Shown: piece after piece, positions 6,822-55,201 of the stretch | How the letters are laid out: each line of letters starts with the position of its first letter | Numbering within the stretch: the first letter of the stretch is position 1 | Source of the DNA: a virus | Strand: one strand, 5' to 3' | IMG/VR virus record: IMGVR_UViG_3300031972_002122 | Span: 64,571 to 128,570 of that record | Length of the DNA: 64,000 nucleotides | Position numbers and translations under genes: made by a program | The notes under the pieces: generated by a model | What the model saw: only the letters and a program-made list of their open reading frames with translations | Databases searched by the model: none | Told to the model about the DNA's origin: nothing

Positions 6822-7594
6822 ATCCAACAATAACTTACGCAATAACTGTGTGTAATGAGGACTGGGAACTGAAGGAGTTACTTAATACATTACATCCATA
6901 CCTGCAGCGAGGGGATCAAATTTTAATACAATCTGATTCGGATAGCGTCACTGATGGTGTTCTGGAGACTATAGATCGACGTATCTCACAATATCGAGGT
7001 TCGGACTTTAAGATAGAACACCAGAGCATTCGTCTGAATAAAGATTTTGGTAGCTTTAAGAATAAATTAAAGGATGGTGCTACTGGTGATTGGATATTTC
7101 AGATAGATGCTGATGAATATCCAACAGAATCATTGTTAACATCGTTATTATATATTCTCAAGGAGAACGATCACGCTGAAGTGATTCTAGTGCCCAGAAT
7201 AAACACCGTAGCTGGGATCACACAAGAACACATCAATAAGTGGGGTTGGAGACACCAGAAGATAGAACATCCACTGTTGAAGGGTGTTATGGATATTGAT
7301 GATAGTACTACGATGGCTGTAGAATTTCTTAAAAACGCAGACGCGGTGTATGAAGATAATGGTTCACGTGTTTATTATCATAAGCCCGTAATAAATTTCC
7401 CAGATTACCAATGGAGATTGTATAAGAACAAGAAATCGATACACTGGGTTAATAAGGTGCATGAACGATTGGTCGGGTATGATTATTATGCGACACTACC
7501 ACCCGATATCTCATGGTGCCTAATGCATAGCAAGGAAATTGTTAGACAAGAATCTCAAAACGAGTTTTACGACGAAATAATTGATAGAAAATGA
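6818..7594 (+). CDS. glycosyltransferase family 2
   Basis: ITYAITVCNE, ATGDWIFQIDADE (DxD), VHE motif. Confidence 0.85.
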   Translation: MNPTITYAITVCNEDWELKELLNTLHPYLQRGDQILIQSDSDSVTDGVLETIDRRISQYRGSDFKIEHQSIRLNKDFGSFKNKLKDGATGDWIFQIDADEYPTESLLTSLLYILKENDHAEVILVPRINTVAGITQEHINKWGWRHQKIEHPLLKGVMDIDDSTTMAVEFLKNADAVYEDNGSRVYYHKPVINFPDYQWRLYKNKKSIHWVNKVHERLVGYDYYATLPPDISWCLMHSKEIVRQESQNEFYDEIIDRK

Positions 7595-34263: not shown

Positions 34264-34625
34264 TGGAAGCGAACGGTCTTGATCCATTAACTATAGCCAA
34301 CCAAGGGCTACTTTCTAACGATCCATGTCAGGTCGCAGCTCAGGGATTGTTACATGTACGTATAGACATTGTCGATCCCGAGGATGAAATTATCATACCA
34401 GATACTGGTGGTGGGATCGTTGATAATGACATATGGAAGCGTAAGACTAAGGAAGAGAAGAAGAAATTACGTGCTAAAATCACAGTTTCGGCAACTGTTG
34501 ATGGAATTACATACGAAGAAATTAAGTATTCAAATGATTGCAGTATAACTGTACAAGACGTTGACATTCAAGTAGTTGAGTCTACTACTAAGCCTAAAAT
34601 TACCATTGAAGTTAAAAAAAAATAG
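34263..34625 (+). CDS. hypothetical protein
   Basis: ORF overlapping the upstream stop. Confidence 0.55.
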   Translation: MEANGLDPLTIANQGLLSNDPCQVAAQGLLHVRIDIVDPEDEIIIPDTGGGIVDNDIWKRKTKEEKKKLRAKITVSATVDGITYEEIKYSNDCSITVQDVDIQVVESTTKPKITIEVKKK

Positions 34626-34643
34626 TAGAAACTTTGTAAAAAA

Positions 34644-34678
34644 TTTGGTTATGTCTTGATGTTTTATATATATTTGCA
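34644..34678 (+). promoter_or_regulatory. Bacteroidota-type sigma70 promoter for tRNA block A
   Basis: TTTG...TATATTTG, matching -33 TTTG / -7 TAnnTTTG. Confidence 0.7.
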
Positions 34679-34706
34679 CATACTTATGAACGAAGAGATA
34701 CGAAAA

Positions 34707-34904: not shown

Positions 34905-34973
34905 ATGGAAAATAGAGAAGACATAGAATATTATTATAGCATTACCAATGGGTGTGCTATCGTTGTGGTGTAA
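34905..34973 (+). CDS. Tyr-run uORF (MENREDIEYYYSITNGCAIVVV) reading into tRNA-Tyr
   Basis: TAT TAT TAT at 34929-34937, 12 nt before the tRNA. Confidence 0.7.
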   Translation: MENREDIEYYYSITNGCAIVVV

Positions 34974-35298: not shown

Positions 35299-35877
35299 AT
35301 GGAAAGATTAAAACTTAAAAAGTTATTAGACTCTGGTAAAAGTACTAGAGAGATTGCAGAGTTAATTGGAAGGGGGCAGACGACTGTTAGATATTGGATT
35401 AAGAAGCATGGGTTGCGATGTAAGTATCATGAGATTAATCGTCAACAGCGGATAAGTGATATTTGTGAAGCTGTTGCCAAGTCCACCTCATACTCAGAGG
35501 TATGTAGGAAGTTGAAAATTCCTCGTTCTGGAAATTCATATCAGAATATGAGATCGGTGATTGAGAGATTGAGTTTAGATGTCTCCCATTTTACAGGGCA
35601 GCGAAAATATCTAGAGTCTATAAAATTAACTCCATATGATGTATTAATATATGATCGGTTGGATGGTAGGCGGGAACGTACTATAGTGTTGCGTAACGCG
35701 TTAACTGAACTTGGTGTTGATGTGTGTAGATGTAGCCTGTGTGGGTTAGATTCTTGGTTGGGAAAACCACTTGGAATGCATATTGATCATATAGATGGTG
35801 ATAGATTAAATAATATTCGTGATAATTTGAGAATTTTATGTCCAAATTGTCACAATCAAATAACGTATAACAAATGA
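35299..35877 (+). CDS. HNH homing endonuclease with N-terminal HTH
   Basis: CSLCG, HIDHIDGDRLNN..DNLRILCPNCH. Confidence 0.9.
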   Translation: MERLKLKKLLDSGKSTREIAELIGRGQTTVRYWIKKHGLRCKYHEINRQQRISDICEAVAKSTSYSEVCRKLKIPRSGNSYQNMRSVIERLSLDVSHFTGQRKYLESIKLTPYDVLIYDRLDGRRERTIVLRNALTELGVDVCRCSLCGLDSWLGKPLGMHIDHIDGDRLNNIRDNLRILCPNCHNQITYNK

Positions 35878-35939: not shown

Positions 35940-36221
35940 ATGAGTAGATCAAGAAAGAAACACGGTGTTGTTAAAGACCGTGGACTCACCCGTAGAGAAT
36001 GGAACAGAAAATTCAGAAGGGTGAACAGACAACGAGTACGTATGGGTAAAGACCCATACCAAATGAAGGAACTGATAAATCCTTACGATGTGTATGATTG
36101 GATATACATATGGGATGAATCGGATATGCAGCGACGGTGGGCTGAAGATGGACGCCATGATTATTATAAAAGGGTATATAAAACCCTTGATAATATGCGT
36201 CGCTGGTACTTTAGAAAGTGA
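35940..36221 (+). CDS. basic conserved phage protein (MSRSRKK family)
   Basis: ORF track. Confidence 0.65.
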   Translation: MSRSRKKHGVVKDRGLTRREWNRKFRRVNRQRVRMGKDPYQMKELINPYDVYDWIYIWDESDMQRRWAEDGRHDYYKRVYKTLDNMRRWYFRK

Positions 36222-36336: not shown

Positions 36337-36425
36337 AGTGCTAAAGCGAATGGAAAGCGATCGCCCTGTCACGGCGACATCAGTCGAAAGATTGTATGCG
36401 GGTTCGAGTCCCGTTAGCACTGCCA
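36337..36425 (+). tRNA. tRNA-Asp(GTC) with long variable arm
   Basis: AGTGCTA/TAGCACT-G-CCA; TCGCC-CTGTCAC-GGCGA. Confidence 0.88.
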
Positions 36426-37654: not shown

Positions 37655-37750
37655 AAAGAGCCGTTTAGACTGTGAGGCGTACCATAGGGATGGTGAATAT
37701 CCTTACATTTATGTGTTGCGTATATGAAAAAGTTTTTTTATATTTGATGT

Positions 37751-38107: not shown

Positions 38108-38206
38108 ATGAAAGAAAGAACTGAAATATCGAGTAGTAGTTCCAGATACTGGAAGGTGAACCTAGCAGGGTCTAGGACTGGATTGCTAATCCATGGGGTC
38201 GGGTAA
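38108..38206 (+). CDS. Ser-run uORF (MKERTEISSSSSRYW...) reading into tRNA-Ser
   Basis: TCG AGT AGT AGT TCC at 38129-38143, 7 nt before the tRNA. Confidence 0.72.
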   Translation: MKERTEISSSSSRYWKVNLAGSRTGLLIHGVG

Positions 38207-38430: not shown

Positions 38431-38484
38431 ATGAAAGTAATAAATACATACAATCGATTACGACTGCTACTCTTACCTGAGTAG
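38431..38484 (+). CDS. Leu-run leader peptide (MKVINTYNRLRLLLLPE)
   Basis: TTA CGA CTG CTA CTC TTA; followed by a hairpin and four tRNA-Leu genes. Confidence 0.78.
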   Translation: MKVINTYNRLRLLLLPE

Positions 38485-38595: not shown

Positions 38596-38605
38596 CAAAA
38601 AGAAA

Positions 38606-38666
38606 CCGATCGGGTACACGGTATACCCGATTGGGTACACGGTATACCCGATTGGGTATATCCGAT
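38606..38666. repeat. 21-bp tandem repeat (~2.9 copies), each copy a hairpin
   Basis: CCGATYGGGTACACGGTATAC x2 plus a partial third copy. Confidence 0.85.
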
Positions 38667-42255: not shown

Positions 42256-42516
42256 ATGAAATCATTATTGATTATACTGGGATTGTTATTCGTTATGCCT
42301 ATAGCAACTCAACAAACACAAGAACCGTCGGCAAACGTCGCCGCGGTAGTTTATATAGTGGACGTCACAGATTTTTCATCTGATGGATACCAGTTCACTC
42401 ATACACTGGACGTTAGGCTAGATGATTCGAAGATTTCACCAGAACAAATTGTGGCAATCCTAGACAATTACACAGCATGGTATAAGACAAAATATCTGGG
42501 ATACAAAAAAATATAA
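42256..42516 (+). CDS. small secreted protein
   Basis: N-terminal signal-peptide-like segment. Confidence 0.55.
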   Translation: MKSLLIILGLLFVMPIATQQTQEPSANVAAVVYIVDVTDFSSDGYQFTHTLDVRLDDSKISPEQIVAILDNYTAWYKTKYLGYKKI

Positions 42517-42534
42517 ATATTTTTTAGCAAAATA

Positions 42535-42568
42535 GTTGTTTTTATCCAAAATATTTATATATATTTGT
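42535..42568 (+). promoter_or_regulatory. Bacteroidota-type promoter for tRNA block B
   Basis: TTTATATATATTTG, same motif as at ~34665 and ~48367. Confidence 0.65.
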
Positions 42569-42617
42569 GTCGATGGAAATGTTGAAGCATTTCTTAAAAT
42601 AAAAAAATAGAGTAACG

Positions 42618-42752
42618 ATGAAAGATTTGATGAACATAGAACGTGTGGACGAACCAGCCGAGGAGACATGGCGCGGTCGTCTAAATGGACTAGGACACCA
42701 GACTTTCAATCTGGACGATGCGGGTTCGATCCCCGTCCGCGCTACCAAGTAG
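42618..42752 (+). CDS. Glu-rich uORF (MKDLMNIERVDEPAEET...) reading through tRNA-Glu
   Basis: GAA, GAA, GAG GAG within the last 10 codons before the tRNA. Confidence 0.68.
   Translation: MKDLMNIERVDEPAEETWRGRLNGLGHQTFNLDDAGSIPVRATK
42670..42747 (+). tRNA. tRNA-Glu(TTC)
   Basis: GGCGCGG/CCGCGCT-A-CCA; CCAGA-CTTTCAA-TCTGG. Confidence 0.93.
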
Positions 42753-42784
42753 TCGTTTTATGTACTTTTTACATACTAATTAAA

Positions 42785-42925
42785 ATGACAACTAAAGAAT
42801 TATTAAAGCCAGTATACGATTCGGCACGTATTGTTACACTTAAAAAACTATATGTTCCGAAATCATTGAGAAAATATCTTAAGACTAAAAAAGTAAATGG
42901 CTTGACGGTTATGGATACCAATTAA
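42785..42925 (+). CDS. small hypothetical protein
   Basis: MTTKELLK start downstream of the tRNA. Confidence 0.5.
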   Translation: MTTKELLKPVYDSARIVTLKKLYVPKSLRKYLKTKKVNGLTVMDTN

Positions 42926-42944
42926 CAAAAAACAAAATAACGTA

Positions 42945-43016
42945 ATGAACACATACACAATCATACAACATCAACCGCAGCCCGTAGGGGCTATTCATCA
43001 ACATAGATTGGTGTAG
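42945..43016 (+). CDS. Gln/His/Pro leader peptide (MNTYTIIQHQPQPVGAIHQHRLV)
   Basis: 4 Gln, 3 His, 2 Pro; followed by a hairpin and tRNA-Pro, -His, -Gln. Confidence 0.8.
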   Translation: MNTYTIIQHQPQPVGAIHQHRLV

Positions 43017-43052
43017 GGAATTGATATGTCGTTCCCTTACATCGTAAGATAA

Positions 43053-43127
43053 CGGGGAGCGATCCATTGGTGTGGTTGCGCGGTTTGGAGCCGTGGTTAT
43101 TTGAAGGTTCGAATCCTTTCTCCCCGA
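43053..43127 (+). tRNA. tRNA-Pro(TGG)
   Basis: CGGGGAG/CTCCCCG-A; CGCGG-TTTGGAG-CCGTG. Confidence 0.88.
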
Positions 43128-43141
43128 CTAGTAATACACAT

Positions 43142-43235
43142 GGTGTGCGAGTCGGATATGGTTTTTTGCCGAGGCAGGTTGTGACCCTGTTGTAGAAATT
43201 TCTACATGCGAGTTCGAATCTCGTCGTACACCCCA
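43142..43235 (+). tRNA. tRNA-His(GTG) with long variable arm
   Basis: G-1:C73, CCA; GCAGG-TTGTGAC-CCTGT; TGTAGAAATTTCTACA extra hairpin. Confidence 0.88.
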
Positions 43236-43253
43236 TTAGTAGTTTTTTTATAA

Positions 43254-43326
43254 AGACCTATGGTATAACGGCTCATTACATCGGCTTTTGGCGTCGAGGA
43301 TTCCAGTTCGATTCTGGATAGGTCTT
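43254..43326 (+). tRNA. tRNA-Gln(TTG)
   Basis: AGACCTA/TAGGTCT; TCGGC-TTTTGGC-GTCGA. Confidence 0.87.
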
Positions 43327-43351
43327 CAAGAATAAAATAATAATAGCATAT

Positions 43352-43469
43352 GGGGGAGATTTATCTCACTCTTTTAGGTGATCTCCTTATGGTAGTAGTA
43401 AATAGAGTTACTTCGGTTAACATTTGTACTTGAAATTCAAATTACTTGGTTCGATTCCAAGCTCCCCCA
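43352..43469 (+). ncRNA. 118-nt tRNA-like RNA (TGA loop) with enlarged D region
   Basis: GGGGGAG/CTCCCCC-A, CTTGG-TTCGATT-CCAAG, TTGTA-CTTGAAA-TTCAA. Confidence 0.65.
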
Positions 43470-43496
43470 CATTTTTTAATCTTAAAAAGGATAGTT

Positions 43497-43577
43497 ATGT
43501 TTAAAAGTATTTTTACACGAATGTTTGTTCGTACATACACAGTTCACGCACCTGCAGTGCCATACCACAAAAGATAA
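43497..43577 (+). CDS. 26-aa uORF ending 3 nt before the initiator-like tRNA
   Basis: Manual translation MFKSIFTRMFVRTYTVHAPAVPYHKR. Confidence 0.45.
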   Translation: MFKSIFTRMFVRTYTVHAPAVPYHKR

Positions 43578-43580
43578 TAT

Positions 43581-43667
43581 CGCGGGGATGAAGGCTGTTG
43601 GTATGCCTCCTAAGTCTCATAAGCTCTGAACGTTTAACGTGTGTAGGTTCGATTCCTACCCCCGCTA
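43581..43667 (+). tRNA. tRNA-Met(CAT), initiator-like (C1 unpaired), atypical
   Basis: CGCGGGG/CCCCGCT; CTCATAA loop; long variable region. Confidence 0.75.
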
Positions 43668-43672
43668 CTATC

Positions 43673-43702
43673 AAGGAGATGAAGAAATTCATCTCCTTTT
43701 TT
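43673..43702 (+). terminator. intrinsic terminator closing tRNA block B
   Basis: AAGGAGATGAA-GAAA-TTCATCTCCTT plus U-run. Confidence 0.88.
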
Positions 43703-43762
43703 GTTTATACCAAAAGTTTTTTATATTATTGCATTATTAATTAACTTAAAATACTTAGCAAT

Positions 43763-44119: not shown

Positions 44120-45030
44120 TGGGAGGTGGAACGTATAATTTTAATGCTAGAGCTACGTCTTCGGTTACTAAAGGTTTTAACAAGGCAACTGTTGATTCGT
44201 TGGATACTGTATTTAAGCAGCAACGACAACGCCGAGTGCATGATAGTCTCGACCCACGCGGTGTGGTTATTCGGGAATCTAGGGATGGTGAGGATCACCC
44301 AGAATCATTAGCTATTTTAGTTGGTATAGATGTCACAACATCAATGGGTAACGTCCCAGTATTGTTAATACGTGACGGACTACCCAATATGATACAGCGT
44401 ATATTCGAGGAGGGTATCGCTGATCCACAGGTGGCGTTCATTGCCATCGGTGATCATGAGTGTGATAACTATCCATTACAGATCGGGCAGTTCGAATCTT
44501 CGGATCAGCTACTAGATGAGTCGTTGACCAACACCTATATTGAAGGTGGTGGTGGTGGCAATGGTGGTGAGAGTTATTTGTTAGCTTGGTACCACGCCGC
44601 GATGCACACGTCAATTGATTGTTTTGAAAAGCGCGGACAGAAAGGGGTTCTTATAACAATTGGTGATGAGCCATGTCTTAATAAGGTTTCTGGATCAGTA
44701 TTAGCTAGGTTGTATAATTTACAATCTGAACTAGATTATTCAGCAGCAGAATTGTTAAAACTTGCTTCGGAGAAGTATGATGTGTATCATATCAATGTCG
44801 GATCGACGTATTCTGGGTATAGATCGAGTACTAAGAATTATTGGAAAGAGTTGCTTAGTGATCATTTCATCGACGCTAAAAGTCATGAAGATATTCCTAG
44901 AATTGTTGCGGAGCTGACGTCTAAGAGTTATAGTGGTACTCGGCAGAAAGTTGAGACTGACTATGCTGAGGCTTATAATGGATCACCTACAGACGTGGAT
45001 GATATTAAAGAACCTAAAATCACATTATAA
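44119..45030 (+). CDS. vWA (MIDAS) domain protein
   Basis: DVTTSMG (DxTxS), AIGDHECD, EGGGGGNGGESY, ITIGDE. Confidence 0.85.
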   Translation: MGGGTYNFNARATSSVTKGFNKATVDSLDTVFKQQRQRRVHDSLDPRGVVIRESRDGEDHPESLAILVGIDVTTSMGNVPVLLIRDGLPNMIQRIFEEGIADPQVAFIAIGDHECDNYPLQIGQFESSDQLLDESLTNTYIEGGGGGNGGESYLLAWYHAAMHTSIDCFEKRGQKGVLITIGDEPCLNKVSGSVLARLYNLQSELDYSAAELLKLASEKYDVYHINVGSTYSGYRSSTKNYWKELLSDHFIDAKSHEDIPRIVAELTSKSYSGTRQKVETDYAEAYNGSPTDVDDIKEPKITL

Positions 45031-46178
45031 TGAATGTAAGTATTGTCACTGGAGTTGGATATGGCGACGAAGGTAAAGGCGTAACCACTAAGTGGCTATG
45101 CGAGCAATTGTTATCTGGGAATGATGATGTACATGTGATGGTAGTCCGATTTGGTGGTGGAAATCAAGTCGGACATACCACCATGGTTGATGATTTCATT
45201 CACACACATCATCACACTGGTGCTGGAACCTTAGTAAATGTACCAACGTTCTATTCTAGATTCTGTACTGTAGACCCAATTAACACGGTATCTGAGATTG
45301 AGTTCTTAACCCAGAAGGGATTTACACCACGTAATATGTATGACCCACGGTGTATGATTGTAACTCCACTCGATGTGATTTACAATCGAATGCGTCATGC
45401 TAAAACACAACACGGAAGTGTTGGGGTGGGGTTTGGTGCAACTATTGCTAGAAATGAATCACACTACCGACTATATGTTGCCGACATTGCAACTCGGGAG
45501 ATATTCATCCAGAAGTGTAAGGGTATCCAGCAATATTATAACAGCCTAGGTGTGGATTTTGATCTAGATTGTGAGGCGTTTTACATCGACTGTATTAACT
45601 TTTTAGATATTGTGGAGGTAAGCAATCTAAATCTGGAGATAACACGTTACATTGGCTCAAAATCGTCCCATATAGTATTTGAGGGGCATCAAGGGGTATT
45701 GCTAGATCAGGAATATGGTGTATTTCCCCATGTTACTAGATCAAAGACTACATGTAAGAATGCATTCACGATACTTGAAGAAGAGAACCTTAACGGGATA
45801 TGTGAGCATATAAATCAATTCATGGTAACGCGAGCATATCATACACGTCATGGTAATGGGTATTTTGAAGAGGAGGATATTTTACTGACAAATACTGAGT
45901 TTGAAACTAATAAATTCAGTGAGCATCAGGGAGCATTTAAAACAGCTCCACTTAACAAAGCATTATTGACTAGGGGAGTACTTTGTAATCTTATGGATGA
46001 GTCTGACTTAGGAAATATTAAAAGACATCTAGTAGTTACGTGTTGTGATCAAGTAGAGTCTTATGAGGACGTCATTGAATATATTTCTGAAACCACCCAA
46101 CTACTGGACACTCTGTGTATTAATGACCATCCATCAGGAAACATTAGACTATATGCCAAGGAAGAAAAAGATAACTAA
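45030..46178 (+). CDS. purA: adenylosuccinate synthetase-like protein (divergent PurA family)
   Basis: GYGDEGKG, RFGGGNQVGHT, HGSVGVG, FEGHQGVLLDQEYGVFPHVTRS, TRHGNG. Confidence 0.85.
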   Translation: MNVSIVTGVGYGDEGKGVTTKWLCEQLLSGNDDVHVMVVRFGGGNQVGHTTMVDDFIHTHHHTGAGTLVNVPTFYSRFCTVDPINTVSEIEFLTQKGFTPRNMYDPRCMIVTPLDVIYNRMRHAKTQHGSVGVGFGATIARNESHYRLYVADIATREIFIQKCKGIQQYYNSLGVDFDLDCEAFYIDCINFLDIVEVSNLNLEITRYIGSKSSHIVFEGHQGVLLDQEYGVFPHVTRSKTTCKNAFTILEEENLNGICEHINQFMVTRAYHTRHGNGYFEEEDILLTNTEFETNKFSEHQGAFKTAPLNKALLTRGVLCNLMDESDLGNIKRHLVVTCCDQVESYEDVIEYISETTQLLDTLCINDHPSGNIRLYAKEEKDN

Positions 46179-47034: not shown

Positions 47035-47668
47035 TATATTGAGTGAATCGTTAGACTTTGGCTTAATCAATGAGGCTGGACTAGCCAGAGTTTTATCTAG
47101 GGTCGGTGGTAAGGATTTTATTATAGCATCGGCGTATCGGTACGGGAATTCTAATAAGGAAAATCGAAGACGTAATGGTGAACTTTTAAATTATCTAAAC
47201 ACTAAGAGGATGGGCGGTTACGTTTTAATTGGACACTGGCAAGAAGCACCCGACGGGATAGAGTGGAAGGACGCTGATCAGGATCAGTTGACGGATTCTA
47301 TAGAAGAAGCTATTCTATTTATCAAGCCTGATGATATGAGTCGTGATGAATTTACACAAATTGGGGTAGACATAACCAATCAATATAATCAAGATGCGGT
47401 ATTATTAGGTTTAAACAGTTCTGAACTAGACGCTGAACCTGAAGCTGGAGCTCCGTCGTTAGATAATATGGATGTGTATCTACTCTTTAAGGATGGCGGT
47501 CGTGAGAAAATAGGCACCAGACTGACATTGAATAAAATATCTCAGGCTTATTCTCAATTAAAATCTAAACCAAACATTCCGTTTGTATTTGAAGGTGTGC
47601 TACATCCTACGAATAATCTGGGTAAGCAGCTCTTTAAGATAAAAAATATATTGTATGAAATTAATTGA
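47021..47668 (+). CDS. hypothetical protein (MKLIDIL.E N-terminus)
   Basis: IASAYR..NKENRRRN..L; YNQDAVL. Confidence 0.7.
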   Translation: MKLIDILSESLDFGLINEAGLARVLSRVGGKDFIIASAYRYGNSNKENRRRNGELLNYLNTKRMGGYVLIGHWQEAPDGIEWKDADQDQLTDSIEEAILFIKPDDMSRDEFTQIGVDITNQYNQDAVLLGLNSSELDAEPEAGAPSLDNMDVYLLFKDGGREKIGTRLTLNKISQAYSQLKSKPNIPFVFEGVLHPTNNLGKQLFKIKNILYEIN

Positions 47669-48341
47669 TATGTTAATAGAAACGTTGGTGACTGAAGGCG
47701 TGTATGATCCAGCGATATTTAAAGCAATTTTCATAGTAGGCGGTGCAGGCTCTGGGAAGACATTCGTTAGGAATAAATCGACTAGAGGATTGGGTTATAA
47801 AGTGGTGACGTCGGATGATATGCTTGTTTCGCTAATGAACAAGAATAATCTATCACTAAAAATGCCCCCAGAGGAGGATGATGAGCGTGATGCACTAAGA
47901 ACTATCGCTAAGGATAAAACAGACGATCGATTAGACATGTATCTAGAAAATCGCCTAGGTGTTATTATTGAAGGTACAGGGCATAATTATGAAAATATCA
48001 AAAATACTCAGCGGAGATTAGCTGAACTTGGGTACGACACGTTTATGATCTTTGTGAACGTTCCAATGGATGTAGCATTAGATAGAAATGCTAAACGAGA
48101 TAGATCAGTTCCACCAGATATTGTTAAAGAGAAATGGCTCAACGCTCAGCAAAACTTGGGTAGGTATCAGTCACTATTTGGTCGGAATAATGTTTCTATC
48201 ATAGATAATGATGACCCATCCGAGAATGTATTTGAACGAATGTGGAAAAACGTTATGATTTTTACCAAGATGAAGGTCAAAAATCACCGAGCAGTGGAGT
48301 GGATAAAGCAGCAATTGAAAAAAAAAGACAGAAATAATTAA
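47655..48341 (+). CDS. P-loop kinase, zeta-toxin/AAA_33-like
   Basis: GGAGSGKT, IIEGTG, VALDRNAKRDRSVP. Confidence 0.85.
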   Translation: MKLIDMLIETLVTEGVYDPAIFKAIFIVGGAGSGKTFVRNKSTRGLGYKVVTSDDMLVSLMNKNNLSLKMPPEEDDERDALRTIAKDKTDDRLDMYLENRLGVIIEGTGHNYENIKNTQRRLAELGYDTFMIFVNVPMDVALDRNAKRDRSVPPDIVKEKWLNAQQNLGRYQSLFGRNNVSIIDNDDPSENVFERMWKNVMIFTKMKVKNHRAVEWIKQQLKKKDRNN

Positions 48342-48346
48342 AATAA

Positions 48347-48380
48347 TTTGGTTTATTCGAAATGTTTTATATATATTTAC
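48347..48380 (+). promoter_or_regulatory. Bacteroidota-type promoter for tRNA block C
   Basis: TTTGG...TTTTATATATATTTA, near-copy of the block A promoter. Confidence 0.68.
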
Positions 48381-48397
48381 ACTAATTATAAAAAATC

Positions 48398-48478
48398 ATG
48401 TTAAGAAATATCAACATATCAGCCATTAAAGTGAATCGCATTAAAGCGAAAGGGTCGAAGTATGTCGTGTTGATATAA
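48398..48478 (+). CDS. putative attenuator leader peptide of tRNA block C (MLRNINISAIKVNRIKAKGSKYVVLI)
   Basis: Manual translation; I/K/N/R/A/V-rich; its 3' end is complementary to the terminator 5' arm. Confidence 0.8.
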   Translation: MLRNINISAIKVNRIKAKGSKYVVLI

Positions 48479-48504
48479 ACTAAATTAGAAGTAATTAAGG
48501 ATAT

Positions 48505-48539
48505 AAAGCCAGTACGACAAGATCGCACTGGCTTTTTTT
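48505..48539 (+). terminator. attenuator terminator directly before tRNA block C
   Basis: AAAGCCAGTACGA/TCGCACTGGCTTT plus U-run. Confidence 0.85.
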
Positions 48540-48542
48540 ATT

Positions 48543-48621
48543 GGCGAGTACCAGCCCATCCTGATAAGATGGAGAACTGTAATTGGTTGTTGAAAATGTG
48601 GGTTCAAATCCCATCTCGCCA
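48543..48621 (+). tRNA. atypical tRNA-Ile(GAT) lacking a normal D arm
   Basis: GGCGAG/CTCGCC-A; CCATC-CTGATAA-GATGG; GTGGG-TTCAAAT-CCCAT. Confidence 0.7.
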
Positions 48622-48637
48622 ACTTAACTGTTAAAAT

Positions 48638-51398: not shown

Positions 51399-52577
51399 AT
51401 GAAACAAGTAATAAGTAGTCAGAAGAAGCCAATTAAGATGTGGCTAGATAATCTGGAGCATGGAGCGATCCAGCAAGCTAAGAACTTGGCGAACTTGCCA
51501 TTCTTATTTAAGCATGTTGCGATTATGCCAGACTCACATCAGGGTTATGGTATGCCGATCGGTGGTGTACTAGCTACTGAAGGTGTGGTTATACCGAATG
51601 CTGTCGGTGTTGACATTGGATGTGGGATGTGTAGTGTTAAGACTAGCATCAAAACGGAAGAGATTGATAAAATTGACTTCTCAAAGTTAATGAACTTGAT
51701 CCGTAAGAAGGTTCCAGTGGGATTTAACCATCACCAGCGAAATCAGAATTCCAAGTGGATGCCTGATGGGATGGATGATGTACCAAAGACTGGTAACATT
51801 CGGAAGGAGTTGAGTAGTGCGCTGAAGCAAGTAGGCACACTCGGTGGTGGTAATCACTTTATAGAGATACAAGCTGGTGATGATGGCTATGTGTGGATAA
51901 TGATTCACTCAGGGTCACGTAACTTAGGTTATAAGACAGCTAGACACCATAACACGTTGGCTAAAGAGATCAATAAGAAATATTGGTCTGAGGTTCCACC
52001 ATCGTGGGATTTAGCATTCTTACTGATCGACTCGCAGGAGGGACAGGATTATATAAGTGAGCTTAATTATGCGACGAAGTTTGCGCTAGCAAACCGTGCA
52101 CATATGATGGAAGCTGTTAAAGAATGTTTAATTGATGTAGCGGGATGGGGTGTTACGTTTGATCCGATGATCAACAAGCCACATAACTTTGCGGAGATGG
52201 AACATCACTTTGGTAAGAATGTTATGGTACACCGTAAGGGTGCTTGTCGGGCTAGGAATGGTGAAGTGGGTATGATACCCGGCTCTCAAGGAACGCACTC
52301 GTATATCGTGAAGGGTAAGGGTGAGGAAAACTCATTCCAGTCTTGCTCACACGGTGCTGGTAGAGTGATGGGACGTAAAGCCGCTCAGAGAAGTTTAGAT
52401 TTTGACACTGAGGTTAAGCGGTTGAATGACATGGGAGTGTACCACACATTAGAAACGGTAAAGCAATTAGATGAAGCTGCAGGGGCATATAAAGATATTG
52501 ACCTCGTGATGGAAAACCAATCTGATCTAGTAGAAATATTAGTGAAGCTGAAGCCATTAGCAGTAGTAAAAGCATAA
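51399..52577 (+). CDS. rtcB: RNA ligase RtcB
   Basis: MPDSHQGYGMPIGG, VGVDIGCGM, GTLGGGNHFIE, HSGSR, HN, HRKGA, SCSHGAGR, DEAAGAYKDI. Confidence 0.96.
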   Translation: MKQVISSQKKPIKMWLDNLEHGAIQQAKNLANLPFLFKHVAIMPDSHQGYGMPIGGVLATEGVVIPNAVGVDIGCGMCSVKTSIKTEEIDKIDFSKLMNLIRKKVPVGFNHHQRNQNSKWMPDGMDDVPKTGNIRKELSSALKQVGTLGGGNHFIEIQAGDDGYVWIMIHSGSRNLGYKTARHHNTLAKEINKKYWSEVPPSWDLAFLLIDSQEGQDYISELNYATKFALANRAHMMEAVKECLIDVAGWGVTFDPMINKPHNFAEMEHHFGKNVMVHRKGACRARNGEVGMIPGSQGTHSYIVKGKGEENSFQSCSHGAGRVMGRKAAQRSLDFDTEVKRLNDMGVYHTLETVKQLDEAAGAYKDIDLVMENQSDLVEILVKLKPLAVVKA

Positions 52578-53720: not shown

Positions 53721-53750
53721 ATGAAGTATAAACGAAAATATAAACAGTAA
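53721..53750 (+). CDS. Lys-rich leader peptide (MKYKRKYKQ)
   Basis: AAG plus 3x AAA in 9 codons; followed by a hairpin and three tRNA-Lys genes. Confidence 0.72.
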   Translation: MKYKRKYKQ

Positions 53751-54093: not shown

Positions 54094-54345
54094 ATGAATA
54101 AGAAAGATAAAGAAACGTATAAAAAGATTGTGGAAGGTGAATGGAAAGACATGCCTGAATTCCACCAAGACGATTTAACGTCTAAGCGAAAGATTGTTGT
54201 TCATTTTAGGAACGATGATGATGTAAAAAAGTTTGAGGAGTTGATGGATCAAAAGATAACGCCAAAGCAAAAATCGCTATGGTATCCATACATGCCTCCT
54301 AGACGGTATGCTCATAAACGATATATAGACGAAGATGAATCCTAG
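54094..54345 (+). CDS. small protein of the type found next to GREB1/TAGT-like glycosyltransferases
   Basis: WKDMPEF..IVVHFRN..F..LMDQKITPKQKSLWYP. Confidence 0.65.
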   Translation: MNKKDKETYKKIVEGEWKDMPEFHQDDLTSKRKIVVHFRNDDDVKKFEELMDQKITPKQKSLWYPYMPPRRYAHKRYIDEDES

Positions 54346-55201
54346 ATATCCTATATACATACCATCTAAGGGTCGATACGAGACGCGTAAGACCGTTAAA
54401 GCACTCGATGCTATATCGGTGCCATATCGGATCGTTGTAGAGCCACAGGAGTACGATAAATACGCTGCAGTCATTGACGAGCATAATATATTAGTACTCC
54501 CAGAGGATAACGTGAAGTTAATCGGTGCTCGGAATTGGATAAAGCAACATTCAATATCGGAGGGGTATGAGCGACATTGGCAACTTGATGATAATATAGA
54601 ACAGTTCAATAGGCTTAATAGAAATTACCAAGTCAAGGTATCGTCTGGGACTATATTTAGGTGTGCTGAAGATTTCACGGATAGGTATGACAACATAGCT
54701 TATTCAGGATTTCAATACGATCACTTCGCAAAGGCGAAGACTAAGATGTTACCATTTATATTGAATACACGGGTGTATTCGTGTACGTTAGTCAATAACC
54801 TTGCACCATACGCTTGGCGATCGATTTATAATGATGATACTGATGTGTGTCTTCAAGCTTTGAAAGATGGGTGGTGTACTGTGTTGTTCAACGCATTCCT
54901 CCAGTGTAAAGCTACGACAATGACAGTTAAGGGTGGAAACACTGAAGAGTTATATTTGATCGAGGATGGTCGTAAGAAGATGGCACAGGCGTTAGTAGAC
55001 TTACATCCAGACGTTGCTAAGGTAGCGTGGAGATTTAATCGATGGCAACATGTAGTGGACTATAGCTCATTCAAGTTGAATAATCGATTGCAGAAGAAAG
55101 ATGGTATAACGATCCCAGAAGGGATCAATAATTATGGTATGAAATTAGTCACCGTAGATTCTGATGAATACACACGGTGGGAAGCAAATAAGCTCCTTTA
55201 G
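54335..55201 (+). CDS. GREB1-like / TET-associated glycosyltransferase (putative DNA base modification)
   Basis: YPIYIPSKGR, GARNWI, WQLDDNI, YNDDTD.CLQAL..GWCT, KGGNT. Confidence 0.82.
   Translation: MNPRYPIYIPSKGRYETRKTVKALDAISVPYRIVVEPQEYDKYAAVIDEHNILVLPEDNVKLIGARNWIKQHSISEGYERHWQLDDNIEQFNRLNRNYQVKVSSGTIFRCAEDFTDRYDNIAYSGFQYDHFAKAKTKMLPFILNTRVYSCTLVNNLAPYAWRSIYNDDTDVCLQALKDGWCTVLFNAFLQCKATTMTVKGGNTEELYLIEDGRKKMAQALVDLHPDVAKVAWRFNRWQHVVDYSSFKLNNRLQKKDGITIPEGINNYGMKLVTVDSDEYTRWEANKLL

Follow-up and report, generated by a model that had tools for sequence, protein, structure and literature searches.

The second half of a marine phage record, IMG/VR virus record IMGVR_UViG_3300031972_002122 (128,570 nt, estimated to be 73 % complete), holds a short open reading frame (ORF) rich in Gln, His and Pro codons just upstream of the genes of tRNA-Pro, tRNA-His and tRNA-Gln. 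This half (64,000 nt, positions 64,571 to 128,570 of the record) is called the window throughout. Two mutually exclusive helices can form after the codon runs of the ORF, and one of them engages the 5' acceptor strand of tRNA-Pro. On the basis of the predicted folds it is proposed, with moderate confidence, that the element is a leader sensed by the ribosome, whose OFF helix would be built with tRNA-Pro's own acceptor strand.

According to this proposal the 23-codon ORF would be translated and would measure the speed at which ribosomes decode Gln, His and Pro codons. The RNA would act as a switch of three segments, namely arm A, which includes the stop codon, arm B, and segment C, which is the 5' acceptor strand of tRNA-Pro (43054-43063). 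When decoding is slow, the ribosome would stall in the run QHQPQP, leaving arm A free to pair with arm B, and tRNA-Pro would fold and be excised (ON). When decoding is fast, the ribosome would reach the stop codon and mask arm A, arm B would pair with the emerging 5' strand of the tRNA, and the acceptor and D stems would be blocked (OFF). It can be said that the logic would be that of a trp- or his-type attenuator in which the tRNA acceptor strand replaces the 3' arm of the terminator. Since the 3' strand of the OFF helix is a tRNA acceptor strand and no U-tract follows it, the output is likely to be tRNA folding or processing, not termination. If this is true, phages would adjust their own tRNA supply by direct measurement of decoding speed, and in this phage it would be the ribosome, and no terminator, that decides whether the tRNA can fold. 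This would be a testable proposal on two questions, the regulation of the tRNA genes of phages and the means by which a phage might perceive that the tRNA pool of its host is under attack. The leader would also represent a small, programmable element that releases a chosen tRNA under the control of a run of codons.

The Gln/His/Pro leader and its competing helices

Gln, His and Pro (Q/H/P) account for 9 of the 23 residues of the leader ORF, seven codons stand before the first Q, and the codons concerned are gathered in two runs (Table 1). In this respect the leader ranks alone, as a Q/H/P share of at least 9/23 is found in 1 of 636 short plus-strand ORFs (15-40 aa) of the whole genome. A stretch in which six of six codons are Q/H/P occurs at a single locus on the plus strand of the whole 128.6-kb record, all three frames considered, and this locus lies 87 nt 5' of tRNA-Pro, where 0.001 would be expected by chance. 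The leader ATG has a context score of 3.51, compared with a mean of 3.48 for real starts, which places it in the 98th percentile among other ATGs. Its start context is typical for the genes of this phage, which are mostly without Shine-Dalgarno motifs (the core is present in 35 % of 97 long genes) and have start codons in A/T-rich contexts. The leader RNA is C-rich and G-poor. As in an attenuator, a short ATG-started ORF, predicted to be translated, is situated just upstream of the tRNAs on the same strand, its last nucleotide (43016) lying 37 nt ahead of tRNA-Pro, and runs of cognate codons (QHQPQP, HQH) precede the Pro, His and Gln genes.

An initial annotation, made from the letters of the sequence and a list of ORFs, had described a leader followed by these three tRNA genes, and this arrangement is borne out by the reading of the ORF and by ARAGORN, as well as by Rfam for tRNA-Pro and tRNA-Gln. 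The tRNA-His gene is non-canonical and was called by ARAGORN only; its region gave no Rfam tRNA match, even at E<=10, and direct reading shows G-1 (43142), C73 and an encoded CCA.

The spacer between the leader and tRNA-Pro can form a hairpin, 43010-43020 with 43032-43043, of 11 pairs and one bulge (-14.1 kcal/mol, z -3.05; 1 of 200 shuffles as good). The alternative is the anti-acceptor helix, or clamp, in which 43028-43037 pairs with 43054-43063, nucleotides 2-11 of tRNA-Pro (-16.4 kcal/mol, z -4.49; none of 300 shuffles as good). When the complement to tRNA-Pro is searched for over the whole 108-nt leader, P is 0.008. The two helices are mutually exclusive due to their common segment 43032-43037. 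Neither is followed by a U-tract, the longest T run in 43017-43066 being 2, and the terminator scan found no intrinsic terminator between the leader and tRNA-Pro, so this element of an attenuator is missing. Both pairings, the lack of a U-tract after the stop-codon hairpin and the lack of intrinsic termination before tRNA-Pro had been pointed out in the initial annotation, and all of them stand up to the calculation of energies and the terminator scan. No Rfam family, cis-regulatory or other, was matched in 42750-43060 at E<=10.

The dependence of the helices on the position of the ribosome was modelled for this leader and for the Leu and Lys leaders described below by folding the RNA either from just before the stop codon or from about 13 nt after it. 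With the 5' arm present, the predicted fold is the hairpin together with a cloverleaf. With the 5' arm removed, which mimics a terminating ribosome, the minimum free energy (MFE) structure flips in all three cases to the anti-acceptor helix and has no acceptor stem. Exclusive helices that depend on ribosome position, a further property of attenuators, are thus found in silico.

Recurrence of the design in this phage and in others

A three-frame view of all regions upstream of tRNA genes revealed ATG-started mini-ORFs with cognate codons also ahead of tRNA-Tyr, tRNA-Ser, tRNA-Leu, tRNA-Glu and tRNA-Lys. All six leaders open with ATG, and in five of them the first cognate codon is number 8-10. 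Genome-wide, the SSSSS locus is unique, YYY is one of 6 loci and at least five Leu in six codons one of 5, and each of these lies within 110 nt of its tRNA. Candidate leaders for Arg and Gly were dropped because their codons mismatch the downstream anticodons. A frame-agnostic test was made on 20 tRNA runs: for each, the best six-codon stretch within the preceding 100 nt was taken, whatever its frame or start codon, and the summed score was 11.65 against 4.7 +/- 1.6 (P = 0.0002 by label permutation, 0.0003 with random segments). In the Tyr, Ser/Cys, Glu and Pro/His/Gln runs the run's own set of amino acids takes rank 1 of 20; in the Leu run it is second, level with that of the other Leu run. 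Applied to distant relatives (46 tRNA runs from 10 loci), the test found none with p<0.05; therefore it does not fire unprompted, and the feature is absent from these relatives. That the match of codons to tRNAs in this genome is non-random is well supported in silico.

The second half of the design recurs as well. When the 45 nt upstream were compared with the first 12 nt of each of 30 tRNAs against shuffles, a complement to the tRNA 5' strand was found for 5 of the 6 leader-preceded tRNAs and for none of the 24 others (Fisher P = 4e-5), with z values of -3.15 for Tyr, -4.06 for Leu-aag, -4.49 for Pro, -3.63 for Lys-ttt and a marginal -1.93 for Glu. The Pro, Leu and Lys leaders end ahead of the tRNA, at stop-to-tRNA distances of 39, 40 and 36 nt, and their spacer hairpins begin at the stop codon or right after it (z -2.96, -3.29 and -4.10) and have a 3' arm that can pair with the tRNA. 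In the Tyr, Ser and Glu leaders the ORF runs into the tRNA itself; for Glu an anti-acceptor helix of 42646-42659 with 42670-42683 is predicted (-17.8 kcal/mol, z -3.05). It is tentatively suggested that the genome carries a whole set of ribosome-gated, post-transcriptional anti-acceptor switches, for Tyr, Ser, Leu, Glu, Pro/His/Gln and Lys, in which RNase P would release the tRNA only upon a stall at cognate codons. If true, this set would add a third kind of output to leader-peptide attenuation, the other two being termination and the masking of ribosome-binding sites.

Other spacers of the tRNA region have peculiarities of their own. At 48398-48545 an ORF of 26 codons, 5 of them Ile, begins 16 nt past a promoter-like repeat; a clear terminator, made of a hairpin plus T7, comes after it, directly 5' of two tRNA-Ile genes. 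The Ile enrichment on its own is weak (p 0.09), and the locus is the only terminator-type candidate attenuator seen in this phage. At 35940-36221 lies a basic ORF of 93 aa, with 5 Trp and 9 Asp residues (empirical p 0.07); 4 nt separate its end from the tRNA-Trp and tRNA-Asp genes. The spacer of tRNA-Leu(aag) and tRNA-Leu(caa), 38597-38666, holds about 2.5 tandem copies of a 21-nt, partly palindromic unit (GGGTACACGGTATACCCGATT).

Leaders of a related kind exist in other phages. IMG/VR was scanned with the back-translated motifs PQPQQHPQ and QPQPQHH, with the window's own IQHQPQP as a control, and tRNAs were counted within 700 nt on the same strand. Matches to PQPQQHPQ were followed by tRNAs in 27 of 42 cases and matches to QPQPQHH in 3 of 111; the first tRNA was Pro(tgg) in 30 of the 30 tRNA-linked matches, and His and/or Gln came next in 22 of them. 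Among the 27 PQPQQHPQ loci there are 19 different sequences, all of one family with MKNLVNIQPQPQQHPQDGEWG.YA as its typical form, and some of the contigs of the family reach 200-365 kb (loci L212-L253; for example L223 around 552, minus strand). In 19 of 19 sequences the ATG stands exactly 8 codons before the run and the stop at codon +16, neither of which was demanded by the search; synonymous changes occur inside the P/Q/H run, and the E-W-G codons are conserved in 18 of 19. A terminator hairpin with a run of at least 5 T is present in all 21 distinct leader-spacer combinations, and by direct reading its 5' arm is complementary to the E-W-G codons, as in a classical antiterminator/terminator pair. 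A ribosome at the stop codon would cover the antiterminator arm (the E-W-G codons), therefore this family would be ON when the ribosome is stalled. These leaders are weakly complementary to the 5' strand of tRNA-Pro (-10.7 kcal/mol at best; z <= -1.9 in 3 of 21). The leader of the window resembles the family in the order of ATG, seven codons, Q/H/P run and then Pro(UGG), His(GUG) and Gln(UUG). In contrast to it, the window leader lacks both E-W-G codons and terminator and has a peptide tail unrelated to that of the family, and an anti-acceptor helix of -16.4 kcal/mol is predicted in which the tRNA strand occupies the place of the terminator 3' arm. The link to this family hints at a way in which one kind of output could give rise to the other.

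The searches made here turned up no close relative of this phage. Among phage records, blastn of 42600-43700 matched tRNA-Glu alone (16 records, 80-85 %), and tblastn of the neighbouring 303-aa gene had a best match of 37 %. IMG/VR yielded 19 loci of at most 49 % identity, with the tRNA trio in none; the best match of the protein search was 65 %, and the metagenome scan retained 80 loci of at most 66 %. The closest homologues are 59-66 % identical. ARAGORN found tRNAs in 14 of 100 loci (L001-L100), and in two of the loci (L058 and L094) a tRNA-Pro lies near the neighbour gene, yet there is no Q/H/P leader. In a distant relative (L001) two Rfam tRNA matches of about 121 nt (6881-7002 and 7253-7373 of that locus; 56-57 bits) were not called by ARAGORN and may be tRNAs with insertions or introns. 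A scan for relatives based on RtcB found nothing. The parts of the window covered by contigs from four sequencing runs (two studies) are identical to it, hence no variants are available from them; the sequencing runs listed for it include none of RNA.

Weighing of the proposed switch against its rivals

Several observations weigh against the proposed switch. The unconstrained and the anti-acceptor states are only about 3 kcal/mol apart, and in a 205-nt context both the MFE and the centroid structure of RNAfold already hold the anti-acceptor helix. Length-dependent flips are seen also in about 3 of 24 control tRNAs, while the tertiary structure and the modifications of tRNA stand outside the model of RNAfold. 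The leader complement is significant for tRNA-Pro alone (z -0.24 for His, -2.0 for Gln), therefore the sensing of His and Gln is left unexplained by a fold switch of tRNA-Pro. The HQH cluster (42996-43004) spans 6-14 nt ahead of arm A and ends 6 nt before it; given the usual footprint, a ribosome stalled at HQH would sit on part of arm A, and the output would be reversed. An unmodified UGG anticodon reads CCC poorly. The transcription unit begins not with this leader but with tRNA-Glu and a 46-codon ORF. Finally, a hairpin pattern search matched no record, and the leader's own motif IQHQPQP was followed by a tRNA in none of 41 IMG/VR matches. The initial annotation had interpreted the locus as a codon-sensed switch of tRNA maturation; of this interpretation the idea of sensing and the two-state geometry are well supported in silico. 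Its weaknesses are the restriction of the clamp to tRNA-Pro, the closeness of HQH to arm A and the 205-nt fold.

A serious rival, though judged rather unlikely, is a reading in which the translated sensor is the same and the output differs. The helix of arm B with the tRNA, or the position of the ribosome, would govern either transcription (pausing, non-canonical or Rho-dependent termination) or stability of the precursor, and the three tRNAs would be regulated together. The leader indeed has codons for all three tRNAs where the clamp reaches Pro alone, all 21 distinct leaders of the related kind in other phages have as output a terminator that governs the whole tRNA run, and C-rich, G-poor leader RNA resembles a Rho loading site. 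C-richness is, however, not shared by the leaders of this design before Lys, Tyr and Ser, neither a U-tract nor a terminator was found before tRNA-Pro, and in 5 of 6 leaders it is specifically the tRNA acceptor strand that is taken by the OFF helix. The direction of control could also be different: the clamp might be useful, protecting or storing the precursor, or a stall at HQH might mask arm A and lower tRNA-Pro. Such a logic is improbable, because under slow decoding it would deliver less tRNA and hence no homeostasis, and the terminator-type relatives are, by reading, wired to be ON when stalled; the position of HQH just ahead of arm A (43010) and the long-context fold, which favours the clamp, nevertheless agree with it. 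With a similarly low probability the locus is a vestigial attenuator, derived from a terminator-type P/Q/H leader which has lost its terminator and whose ORF and helices no longer regulate. The layout is common to the IMG/VR family, and the window is without the terminator, as this explanation would have it, but four to five other leaders of this phage are likewise terminator-less, with significant anti-acceptor complements and stop-to-tRNA distances of 36-40 nt, and a layout repeated so many times would not come from decay.

A chance origin would mean that one frame of a CA-rich spacer looks like a Q/H/P run by accident and that the hairpin in it is a coincidence. Any CA-rich stretch does yield CAN and CCN codons in one frame, and the two pattern searches mentioned above lend no support to conservation among relatives. 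Against this stand the genome-unique stretch before the matching tRNAs (expected 0.001), the multi-run P of about 3e-4 and the independent link of leader and tRNA in IMG/VR (27/42, with 0/41 for the own-motif control), so chance is regarded as very improbable. Hardly any credit is given to the idea that a duplicate tRNA gene decayed here and left its 3' half as the anti-acceptor segment. In the Lys and Leu leaders this segment does resemble the 3' acceptor strand of the tRNA itself (CTGGGGG, 7 nt), but the pairing segment of the Pro leader has no such similarity and 42750-43060 gave no Rfam match. The candidacy of these segments as tRNA remnants was rejected, the same-strand similarity of the six leader spacers to the 30 tRNAs being insignificant (P >= 0.47).

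Genomic surroundings and comparison with known systems

The window has a G+C content of about 39 %, and its plus strand holds nearly all genes. ARAGORN places 26 tRNA genes between 34.9 and 56.6 kb, and several further tRNA-like genes were recognised by Rfam or in a relaxed ARAGORN run. The unit to which the Pro/His/Gln leader belongs probably runs from the promoter-like repeat at 42503-42570 to the terminator at 43673-43698, in the order Glu leader with tRNA-Glu, 46-codon ORF, Q/H/P leader, tRNA-Pro, -His and -Gln, a tRNA-like element, a 26-codon ORF and tRNA-Met. The 46-codon ORF matched no PHROG family. The tRNA-like element (112 nt, 43351-43468) has a GGGGGAG/CTCCCCC acceptor and a T arm; other non-canonical genes are a tRNA-Ile(GAU)-like gene without a D arm (48542-48622) and the unusually long tRNA-Asp (89 nt, 36337-36425) and tRNA-Met (88 nt, 43581-43668).

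Two A/T-rich repeat families resemble phage promoters. The first (34612-34679, 42503-42570 and 48315-48382), named D7, heads three tRNA blocks; its promoter role is putative, and the copy at 42503 probably heads the tRNA/mini-ORF unit. Further A/T-rich promoter-like repeats lie at 37721, 39697, 40932, 43712, 49363, 54083, 55863 and 56634. A promoter-like TTGATA-18-TAAGAT in the spacer (score 9/12) was treated as a chance occurrence because the count of such sites, 13, is within the expectation of 12.3 +/- 3.9.

Protein genes are interspersed in the tRNA cluster. An RtcB RNA ligase (51399-52577; Pfam E 7e-111) and a P-loop AAA_33/zeta-toxin-like kinase (47655-48341) are found there and possibly function in tRNA repair. 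Their presence in the same cluster fits a response to host tRNA depletion, and if the proposed switches are real, the phage could answer such depletion, for example that caused by anticodon nucleases. An adenylosuccinate-synthetase-like gene (45030-46178), an HNH endonuclease (35299-35877) and a TET-associated glycosyltransferase (54335-55201) also lie among the tRNA genes, the last of them hinting at DNA hypermodification.

Table 1. Leader, switch segments, tRNA genes and related features (window coordinates)
Feature	Position	Strand	Remarks
Leader ORF, 23 codons, MNTYTIIQHQPQPVGAIHQHRLV	42945-43016	+	ATG 42945, TAG 43014-43016
Putative sensor run 1, codons 8-13, Q H Q P Q P (CAA CAT CAA CCG CAG CCC)	42966-42983	+	
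Putative sensor run 2, codons 18-20, H Q H (CAT CAA CAT)	42996-43004	+	
Arm A, 5' arm of spacer hairpin	43010-43020	+	Includes stop codon TAG 43014-43016
Arm B	43028-43043	+	43032-43043 pairs with arm A; 43028-43037 pairs with tRNA-Pro 5' strand (anti-acceptor)
tRNA-Pro(UGG)	43053-43128	+	ARAGORN; Rfam 33.1 bits; nucleotides 2-11 (43054-43063) are the anti-acceptor target
tRNA-His(GUG), non-canonical	43143-43235 (G-1 at 43142)	+	ARAGORN only; 93 nt, long extra arm
tRNA-Gln(UUG)	43254-43327	+	ARAGORN; Rfam 52.9 bits
Mini-ORF with YYY	34905-34973		Before tRNA-Tyr
Mini-ORF with SSSSS (TCG AGT AGT AGT TCC)	38108-38206		Before tRNA-Ser(gct) and tRNA-Ser(tga)
Mini-ORF with LRLLLL	38431-38484		Before four tRNA-Leu genes
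Mini-ORF with MKYKRKYKQ	53721-53750		Before two tRNA-Lys genes
Promoter-like repeat, family D7	42503-42570	+	1 of 3 direct-repeat copies (34612, 42503, 48315), each upstream of a tRNA block
Glu-rich ATG ORF	42618-42752	+	Reads through tRNA-Glu (42670-42747); 4 Glu in the 17 codons preceding the tRNA
46-codon ORF	42785-42925	+	Ends 19 nt before leader ATG; start-context score 7.28
Intrinsic terminator closing the unit	43673-43708	+	11-pair stem, then T run

Among the papers listed by a full-text literature search there was none in which leader-peptide control is applied to tRNA genes. The sensor is of a known type; new are its presumed targets, tRNA genes, and its probable effect, which is on tRNA folding. 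Leader-peptide transcription attenuators govern the enterobacterial amino-acid operons (hisL, trpL, leuL, pheL), with multivalent leaders in thr and ilv. The present leader shares with them a short ORF with a run of regulatory codons and a ribosome position that would pick one of two exclusive helices, and with the thr and ilv leaders the sensing of several amino acids by one leader. It differs from them in that tRNAs are regulated instead of biosynthetic enzymes, the final helix is without a U-tract and the whole is phage-borne. In the translational attenuation of ermC and cat a drug-induced stall frees a ribosome-binding site. Here too a ribosome stalled in a leader ORF would remodel a downstream helix and free a functional RNA site with no terminator; however, the strand sequestered consists of tRNA-Pro nucleotides 2-11, not of a ribosome-binding site or start codon, it is a tRNA acceptor strand that would be freed, and what is sensed would presumably be how much cognate tRNA is supplied. 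T-box riboswitches bind tRNA directly, without a ribosome, and control genes of aminoacyl-tRNA synthetases or of amino-acid metabolism. As in a T-box, an RNA leader would monitor specific tRNAs via codon-anticodon matching, but the codons of the present leader lie in an ATG-started frame, and the region has no match to an Rfam family. In textbooks leader-peptide attenuation belongs to the operons of amino-acid synthesis; it would be extended here to tRNA genes if the reading of the locus as a ribosome-sensed leader holds.

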